A DNA stretch of 64,000 nt, from positions 32,305 to 96,304 of the forward strand of contig CALVEA010000004.1 of NCBI GenBank assembly GCA_944326455.1, given 5' to 3'. The stretch is from Candidatus Gastranaerophilales bacterium (lineage in GTDB: Bacteria > Cyanobacteriota > Vampirovibrionia > Gastranaerophilales > Gastranaerophilaceae). Position 1 is the stretch's first letter. Each line of letters starts with the position of its first letter. Positions 34,809-35,138 of the stretch are shown in pieces. The notes under the pieces were generated by a model. That model did no database searches. It saw nothing but the letters and a program-made list of their open reading frames with translations, and was not told where the DNA came from. Made by a program: the position numbers and the translations under genes.

Positions 34809-35138
34809 CTAAAAGTGATAACTGAATGATGATTGAATGCTTGAATCTACAGCGCTCTTACAAGATTGGAGTTCTGCATTAACCATATCAAGTCTTGTCT
34901 GGTATTCTTGCATTTGCAAATCAAGTTTCTTTTCTAATACTGTTAATCTTTCTCGCCGCGCCTCAAGCTGCTTAACCGCCGGGTTCTCCGGGTCGAGGTC
35001 GTTGCCTAATGACAAAATTTCATCGGAAGATGCAACCAATTCCATTTTGGCAGTCGCAATCCACTGAAGCTTTGATTCCAAAGTCAGCTTATAAGCTGTC
35101 AGGTACATCATTCGAAATGTTGATGTAATTAATCCCAT
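34809..35138 (-). CDS. Small helix-PxxP-helix protein (109 aa), paralog of 36656..38242 termini
   Basis: Two amphipathic helices joined by DPENP; N- and C-terminal alignment to the 528-aa neighbour. Confidence 0.75.
   Translation of the reverse strand: MGLITSTFRMMYLTAYKLTLESKLQWIATAKMELVASSDEILSLGNDLDPENPAVKQLEARRERLTVLEKKLDLQMQEYQTRLDMVNAELQSCKSAVDSSIQSSFSYHF

Follow-up and report, generated by a model that had tools for sequence, protein, structure and literature searches.

We analysed a 64,000-nucleotide (nt) stretch of the genome of a Candidatus Gastranaerophilales bacterium (contig CALVEA010000004.1, positions 32,305 to 96,304; hereafter the window, with its genome designated G000). We focused on a minus-strand gene at 34809-35138, whose product of 109 amino acids (aa) is a predicted helical hairpin. 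Within a large, unnamed family that is restricted to the class Vampirovibrionia and referred to here as the 'MGL' family, it is the shortest member. The gene closes a cassette named after its product lengths, and the order 528-281-91-109 on one strand was found in 70/70 related loci containing all four genes. The features of the locus are listed below.

33584-34801, minus strand: 405-aa gene, 7 nt downstream of the 109-aa gene, an accessory operon passenger (12/80 loci)
34809-35138, minus strand: 109-aa helical hairpin, minimal 'MGL' family member without an insert (open reading frame, AlphaFold2 model, homologues, family profile)
35160-35435, minus strand: 91-aa very basic helical protein (p91), 21 nt upstream of the 109-aa gene (79/80 related loci)
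35612-35637, minus strand: sigma-28 (FliA)-type promoter TAAAGTTTTTAGAAAAAATGCCGTTA, between the 281- and 91-aa genes
35772-36617, minus strand: 281-aa protein rich in Gly, Ser and Tyr, with a C-terminal helix and hydrophobic segments rich in Gly (77/80 loci, collinear)
36656-38242, minus strand: 528-aa paralogue with a variable alpha/beta domain (~400 residues) at the tip (family profile, BLAST, conservation, AlphaFold2)
38276-38305, minus strand: promoter-like element TTGACTTTATGTAAAGAT... upstream of the 528-aa gene (comparison of upstream sequences)

The 109-aa hairpin and its likeness to needle proteins

The open reading frame (ORF) at 34809-35138 translates to MGLITSTFRMMYLTAYKLTLESKLQWIATAKMELVASSDEILSLGNDLDPENPAVKQLEARRERLTVLEKKLDLQMQEYQTRLDMVNAELQSCKSAVDSSIQSSFSYHF, which starts with MGLITSTFRMMYL, ends with SSIQSSFSYHF and contains the motifs D49-P-E-N-P-A54, E78-Y-Q-T-R-L and KSAVDSSIQSSF. 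With a 32-sequence alignment as input, AlphaFold2 (AF2) modelled helix 2-46, loop 47-52 and helix 53-105 at a mean predicted local distance difference test (pLDDT) score of 89.7. The predicted helices thus span 45 and 53 residues, and the six-residue turn contains D-P-E-N-P (P50-E-N-P53). ORF and model agree with a previous sequence-only reading of the window, which had described a helix-DPENPA-helix protein with EYQTRL. Database searches returned 359 homologues, without exception from gut metagenome-assembled genomes labelled Gastranaerophilales, Melainabacteria or Vampirovibrio, and the best 120 of the 359 were 77-97% identical and 107-114 aa long. This number of homologues and their strong conservation indicate that the ORF is a real gene and not a chance one. 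In the narrow alignment of close relatives (A1), D49, P50, N52, P53, Y79, Q80, S104, F105 and Y107 were invariant. A search of 1.84 billion representatives with the 109-aa profile (E ≤ 0.001) matched 222 clusters; the PxxP turn (consensus DLDPDSP) and a C-terminal I..SF.Y were kept across this short-form family, whereas 'EYQ' was kept in close relatives of the 109-aa protein only.

The same reading had likened the protein to the needle subunits of type III secretion systems (T3SS). Like SctF (MxiH/PrgI/YscF) and SctI/FliE, the 109-aa protein is a small predicted hairpin with a proline-containing turn and a conserved extreme C-terminus, and it is also plausibly a T3SS-exported polymer unit. However, homology to needle subunits gained no support from Pfam, NCBIfam, PDB or Foldseek searches. 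When 67 diverse family members were compared with Pfam, only sub-threshold coiled-coil noise was obtained, and T3SS_needle_F was not among their 25 most frequent matches at E ≤ 1. Foldseek of the 109-aa model against the PDB gave nothing at E < 0.001 and no needle structure in the top 50. The top matches were generic antiparallel coiled coils, namely the IpaB 74-242 hairpin (E 0.03), prefoldin, LSD1 and moesin; for IpaB 74-242 the template-modelling (TM) score reached 0.82-0.86, with E-values of 0.03-0.05 that are not significant. EspA-type filaments and the N-terminal coiled coil of IpaB/SipB likewise have a long antiparallel coiled coil in common with the 109-aa protein, but this is a generic fold with insignificant E-values, and the 109-aa protein carries no transmembrane segments.

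Needle subunits are about 80 aa long, with helices shorter than 45 and 53 residues. The 109-aa protein is ~30% longer than SctF, with longer helices, and differs further in having domain-bearing paralogues, which we do not know of in needle proteins. In place of an injectisome locus, its gene is surrounded by the 528-, 281-, 91- and 405-aa unknowns, ilvD and a porin gene. No injectisome-type genes were seen, and both export systems with a FHIPEP (FlhA-type) protein in this genome have FliE/FliF/FliH/Flg-rod partners; secretin was not searched for. The sequence-only reading was correct in finding flagellar rod genes but no injectisome genes in the window. These rod genes, of FlgC/FlgB type at 3-980, belong to the true flagellar set, since the rod genes of the second export system (T2, described below) lie on contig C1; they are 34 kb from the 109-aa gene and unlinked to it.

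Descent from a true, highly diverged SctF needle protein would account for the hairpin, the P-x-x-P turn and a C-terminal D..I..SF that resembles the needle C-terminus. We nevertheless regard it as highly improbable: neither profile nor structure searches recovered a needle protein, T2 looks flagellar (FliE, FliF, FliH, Flg rod proteins), and the PxxP turn is confined to the short-form subfamily, with whole domains in its place in the paralogues. A helical hairpin of ~100 aa would also fit a WXG100/EsxA-like dimer as a substrate of type VII secretion, but the chance of this is negligible. The turn reads D-P-E-N-P and carries no WxG motif, Pfam gave no WXG100 match for the 109-aa protein or its family, and the LptC, LptA/D-type and porin genes in the window point to an outer-membrane host, while type VII systems have been described in bacteria that are monoderm or bear a mycomembrane.

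A family with conserved ends and a variable middle

The 'MGL' proteins combine an N-terminal helix of about 45 conserved residues (MGLxxSQxRxLxLTARKxDLE...) with a C-terminal helix of about 55 (...LDTE...VxxxIexSFxxF), and the insert at the hairpin tip ranges from 0 to about 570 residues. A diverse short-form alignment of 67 sequences (A3) served as the basis of the family hidden Markov model (HMM); its consensus was MGL..S..R...L.....DLE...Q.I...K..L...G.DLDPDSP..K.L..R...L...EK.LD.Q......QL.AV..E..S........I..SF.Y. Applied to all ORFs of G000, this HMM found 8 proteins, the 109- and 528-aa products and paralogues of 332, 394, 383, 435, 474 and 143 aa encoded on other contigs. In the longer members the match comprised residues 1-45 and the last ~60, and the N-terminal match of the 143-aa protein was weaker. 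We also searched a complete flagellin-less relative, taken whole (G099), which holds 15 members of 108-679 aa, again matched at residues 1-45 and over the last ~60. Short and long forms were bridged by representatives of 109-300 aa, among them P0331 (109 aa), whose MGLAASHARLQMLTARKSDLE start and VVDKNIAMTFKTF end are both typical of long forms. An hhalign comparison of A1 with the 528-aa family was weak, and the paralogy was shown by the broader HMM.

The 528-aa protein has terminal helices at 1-45 and 465-526, as in the 109-aa protein. The family HMM matched both of its ends (i-E 5.6e-8 and 4.9e-9), and BLAST between the C-termini of the 109-aa and 528-aa proteins gave 7e-4. Among at least 4107 homologues, conservation was 0.8-0.99 at the ends versus 0.28-0.6 in the middle. 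AF2 gave a confident alpha/beta middle and a long C-terminal helix (452-526), with residues 1-45 at low confidence, and Foldseek of this model against the PDB returned nothing at E < 0.001. The terminal regions of flagellar axial proteins are disordered in the monomer, and the low-confidence N-terminal 45 residues of the 528-aa model resemble them. The inserts of 8 long paralogues matched nothing in Pfam, and a tblastn search of plasmid and phage collections with one of the long paralogues was negative. Literature searches yielded no description of the hairpin family.

As far as sequences and models indicate, 'MGL' proteins share their architecture with flagellar axial proteins (FliC, FlgK, FlgL, FlgE, rod) without a sequence relationship. 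In both groups the terminal helices pair, or are predicted to, and the tip domain varies in size; both have many dispersed paralogues per genome, and the likeness extends to a sigma-28-type promoter on part of the 'MGL' family and to a flagellar-type export apparatus in the host. Unlike axial proteins, the 'MGL' proteins carry no Flagellin_N/C or Flg_bb_rod signature: neither the 109- and 528-aa proteins nor 8 additional long paralogues matched Flagellin_N/Flagellin_C or Flg_bb_rod/Flg_bbr_C in Pfam. They further differ in a conserved part of only ~45+55 residues with no D1-like extension, in the insert-free 109-aa member, and in their presence in genomes without flagellin, hook and junction proteins.

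One alternative is that the 'MGL' proteins form an intracellular coiled-coil scaffold or cytoskeletal family, bundling in the cytoplasm or at the membrane and unrelated to secretion. The matches are to generic coiled coils only, the paralogues are scattered among housekeeping genes, and neither a secretion signal nor linkage to a T3SS operon was found. Near-invariant ends with a hypervariable middle would, however, be unusual in cytoplasmic scaffolds, several members lie behind sigma-28-type promoters, and the family is confined to T3SS-bearing genomes. We consider a scaffold unlikely. Among the dispersed paralogues of G099, two of 352 aa (200795-201853 and 218936-219994) lie 18 kb apart, and their identical HMM scores and match coordinates suggest a recent duplication.

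The cassette partners bear on a second alternative. The p91 gene was present in 79/80 related loci at 81-93% identity; its product had no Pfam or PDB match and is possibly a chaperone or regulator. A p91 homologue (34% identity) occurs among three short-form genes in the distant family f39 (locus L207), and a weaker p91-like gene lies at a short-form locus of family f45 (L210). Because the pairing recurs in these distant families, p91 and the hairpin form an old module. The 109-aa protein could be a partner or regulator of the long paralogues that pairs with or mimics their terminal helices. It might then inhibit assembly, serve as a cap or adaptor, or switch the secretion hierarchy, and the basic p91 may take part in this. 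It has the terminal helices of the long forms and no exposed domain, its pairing with p91 is invariable, and its gene is single-copy in Gastranaerophilaceae, with 75-98% identity versus 43-69% for the 528-aa protein. On the other side, f39 and f45 carry many short-form copies in tandem arrays, as a major subunit would, and we judge a partner or regulator to be quite unlikely.

The remaining neighbours gave less information. Pfam, NCBIfam and PDB sequence searches assigned no family to the 109-, 91-, 281-, 528- and 405-aa proteins or to a 421-aa protein of the window, and an Rfam scan of the cassette gave no match. We considered the 281-aa protein as an 'MGL' member sharing the C-terminal helix, which was unsupported (family HMM E = 0.24; no BLAST match to the 109-aa protein). 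The 405-aa gene stands outside the conserved cassette (12/80 related loci) and has no homologue in G099; it is an 'atypical kinase' candidate for which Pfam finds no match.

Sigma-28-type promoters and a second flagellar-type export system

The sigma-28/FliA consensus is TAAAGTTT-N11-GCCGATAA. At 35637-35612 we found a match to it, TAAAGTTT-N11-GCCGTTA, which would drive the 91-109 transcript (here also the 405-aa gene), with a TGTAAC element ~25 nt upstream. The motif TAAAGTTT-N11-GCCG(T/A)TA stood at a fixed distance upstream of the p91 gene in 69/78 species loci, and it was also present at the cassette of G099. Contigs C12, C22 and C24 also have paralogues behind this motif, and C10 has one behind a variant of it; 3-4 of the other 7 paralogue units in G000 carried such a site, often with a TGTAACAA element just upstream. 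In G099, of about 14 'MGL' units, 3 lay behind a strict and 6 behind a relaxed pattern. Genome-wide counts of the loose pattern were 43 in G000 (5-24 in null sequences) and 30 in G099 (2-9 in null sequences), from which we estimated the chance of such a site per 250-nt upstream window at about 0.003. Genomes without flagellin retain a FliA orthologue that scores above the TIGR02479 cut-off; its gene in G099 is 5 kb away from the T2 rod operon. Since the 109-aa gene appears to be co-transcribed with p91 from this promoter, the 91-109 unit would be a 'late' gene in flagellar logic, and we infer that it depends on FliA. A scan for sigma-70 promoters and terminators remained at background level.

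Other sigma-28-type sites and sigma-like genes were noted in G000. Six further genes behind such promoters (C3:81291-82730, C30:8461-9834, C21:21511-23085, C13:47966-49639, C5:21775-23628 and C8:13517-15892) encode large products with no N-terminal signal peptide obvious by eye. Two contain GSCWLLA or VCWALAS, resembling the catalytic-cysteine region of papain-like proteases, and two have Gly-zipper hydrophobic segments like the 421-aa protein of the window; these six products are candidate secreted cargo. True flagellin genes of G000 lie at C22:33606, C5:112921, C20:9302 and C3:117082, and additional sigma-like genes (C3:112295, C5:105714) lie 4-6 kb from two of them. The flagellum in G000 may use a different late sigma factor.

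G000 contains two full-length FHIPEP genes (859 and 721 bits) and a paralogue of the cytoplasmic domain alone. Every gene of the fliPQR-flhB-flhA operon that encodes the 859-bit FlhA is matched by a paralogue of 31-42% identity at another site of the genome. The second FlhA is encoded in a fliE-fliF-(fliG-like)-fliH-flhA operon, and a separate operon on contig C1 carries four rod-like genes. T2 thus comprises FliE, FliF, a FliG-like protein, FliH, FliI, FliPQR, FlhA, FlhB and four rod-like proteins, and its complete set in G000 lies outside the window as follows.

C1:51560-57728, C1:151102-154295, C28:4734-7351, C12:1200-2276 and C12:8158-9504: complete T2 set

We then took a census of T2 and flagellin in 51 genomes from 28 genera. 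The results showed T2 in 51/51 genomes and flagellin in 14/51, leaving 37 without flagellin. The ~860-bit FlhA was present in 13/14 flagellin genomes; the exception (G253) had one flagellin match and no ~860-bit FlhA. G099 has an orthologue for every T2 gene, its FlhA being 86% identical to the second FlhA of G000 versus 37% to the flagellar copy, and it has one FliI-type ATPase where G000 has two. No flagellin was found in G099, which showed three rod-type matches only and no match of hook or hook-junction size, so that T2 has no known distal substrate. In the FHIPEP tree, flagellar and T2 sequences formed two separate clades (support 100/100). According to published work, ~1/4 of Gastranaerophilales have full flagellar sets and the others keep a subset, which was read as loss of a functional flagellum by Soo et al. 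2014 (PMC4040986) and postulated to be a secretion device in bioRxiv 10.64898/2026.04.24.720558. Our literature searches found no description of this subset as a coexisting paralogous T3SS in Melainabacteria. The present results show that the retained subset is an old T3SS in its own right, paralogous to the flagellar one and found alongside true flagella in flagellated relatives.

Two further genes accompany the export systems. A sigma-factor-like gene of 220-229 aa lies directly downstream of flhB2 (G000 C12:520-1164; G099 29366-30028) and matches the FliA model weakly (53-79 bits); it may encode a T2-specific sigma factor distinct from canonical FliA. The ~490-aa protein with the FlhA cytoplasmic domain only (FHIPEP 321-653; G000 C8:61987-63459) is kept in 48/48 sampled Gastranaerophilaceae genomes, at about one copy in each.

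Filament-less basal bodies acting as exporters (Buchnera) and dual flagellar systems offer the nearest precedents, as an export gate, MS ring and rod are kept without flagellin in T2 as well. Unlike Buchnera-type basal bodies, T2 is not a decayed flagellum but an old paralogous set that, in flagellated relatives, stands beside a complete flagellar set, and it is accompanied by a candidate cargo family of flagellin-like design.

The distribution of the 'MGL' family follows that of T2 in part. Members were found in 124/124 sampled Gastranaerophilaceae genomes and in none of the sampled photosynthetic cyanobacteria. Within the class, families f1, f39, f42, f45 and f47 have 'MGL' members, all with a T2 FlhA in subclade B1, whereas f40 and f44 have neither FHIPEP nor 'MGL' proteins; the match between the 'MGL' family and B1-type FlhA was perfect at family level. 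The 109-aa gene lay 6-10 kb from the fliE-flhA2 operon in 14/48 sampled Gastranaerophilaceae genomes; in G000 the two are on different contigs.

With T2 in view, the 109-aa protein could also be its stalk. FliJ and SctO are antiparallel two-helix coiled coils of 120-170 aa that couple the ATPase to FlhA. No FliJ-like or hairpin gene adjoins fliI2, the 109-aa gene occurs as a single, strongly conserved copy that lies close to flhA2 in several genera, and sub-threshold SctO-type matches were obtained (Pfam SPAM in 5/67 members, best E 0.009; PDB EscO, E 0.52). We consider a stalk very unlikely all the same. The SPAM and EscO matches are at noise level, the protein is shorter than FliJ/SctO, its gene is not next to a T3SS ATPase gene, a late sigma-28 promoter would be unexpected for an early export-gate component, and homology to 8-15 paralogues per genome with large tip inserts is clear.

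Proposed role and its meaning for Gastranaerophilales

We propose that the 109-aa protein is a late, sigma-28-controlled substrate or subunit of the flagellar-type T3SS machinery, a reading to which we give a little less than an even chance. Its N-terminal helix would pair with its C-terminal helix in a two-helix antiparallel coiled-coil hairpin, the bare version of the family, and it would be expressed late with p91 under FliA. A flagellar-type T3SS would then export it, most likely T2, although in flagellated species either system could serve. Assembly through the terminal helices, alone or with domain-bearing paralogues, would produce an extracellular or rod-distal structure in which the 109-aa unit may act as buried core, adaptor or cap, while the 528-aa protein and other paralogues would be surface-exposed, diversifying units. 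In this proposal the protein would work like needle proteins or flagellins, although no membership in either family was detected. The needle idea found no support as a statement of homology, whereas the looser intuition of a T3SS appendage unit has circumstantial backing in the hairpin, the axial-like family, the sigma-28-type promoter and T2.

Several observations weigh against this proposal. Pfam and NCBIfam gave no SctF, flagellin or WXG100 match above threshold for the 109-aa protein; neither phmmer against the PDB nor hmmsearch with the family profile, each with a limit of E ≤ 10, listed a chain of a needle protein, a flagellin or a WXG100 protein; and hhalign of the A3 alignment against the five flagellins of G000 gave a probability of 0.3%. 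Regarding linkage, no 'MGL' paralogue lies inside a T3SS operon, and in G099 housekeeping genes (purH, deaminase) stand between the cassette and fliE. Families f2, f41, f43 and f46 have a T2-type FlhA of the sister subclade B2 and no detectable 'MGL' member, and the match with the B1 families may reflect a single evolutionary event or phylogenetic split. As to expression, the promoter-like element of the 528-aa gene and of its closest paralogue is not of the sigma-28 type. This element, TTGACTTT(A/T)TGTAAAGAT, is common to the 528-aa gene, a giant 1922-aa gene (element at about 29992-30021, minus strand) and the 435-aa paralogue on C1. The true flagellin genes of G000 have long leaders and no strict TAAAGTTT-N11-GCCG(A/T)TA motif, and the sigma factor reading the motif is for this reason an assumption. 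FlgM was not detected in any genome, a result that is uninformative.

A bolder version of the proposal holds that the hairpin family forms a distal needle- or filament-like appendage, or is the main cargo, of an ancient flagellin-independent paralogue of the flagellar T3SS that every sampled gut Gastranaerophilaceae genome carries, with the 109-aa protein as bare core unit. We put this forward tentatively, as somewhat unlikely.

Elsewhere in the window, a Maf/MptE-like gene lies at 21586-23331, and Maf proteins are implicated in flagellin glycosylation. The Maf glycosyltransferase was excluded as a modifier of 'MGL' proteins because it is absent from the flagellin-less G099; the gene seems to be associated with the true flagellum rather than with the hairpin family. 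The gene at 42716-44845 encodes a 709-aa product that carries a TPS secretion domain (two-partner-secretion cargo type); it lies beside a class A beta-lactamase-family gene (41407-42618), LptC (45002-45610) and an LptA/LptD-N-type gene (45610-46563).

Gastranaerophilales, which are non-photosynthetic cyanobacteria of the gut, are widespread in people and animals and uncultured, and a 'partial flagellar gene set' persists in about three quarters of these bacteria. What is new here is that FliA and its promoter type are kept without flagellin, and that an unnamed family of flagellin-like design lies partly in the apparent regulon. This new family, T3SS-axial-like in predicted design, appears tied to T2 by promoter type and phyletic pattern. 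If the 'MGL' proteins are exported subunits, they would give a concrete, testable answer to the question of what the orphan machinery makes. They would then add a new structural way of building appendages by a T3SS, and their hypervariable middle domains suggest a possible relevance to interaction with the host. If the bolder version is true, human and animal gut bacteria would possess a third kind of T3SS appendage, whose subunits have no sequence relationship to flagellin or needle proteins.

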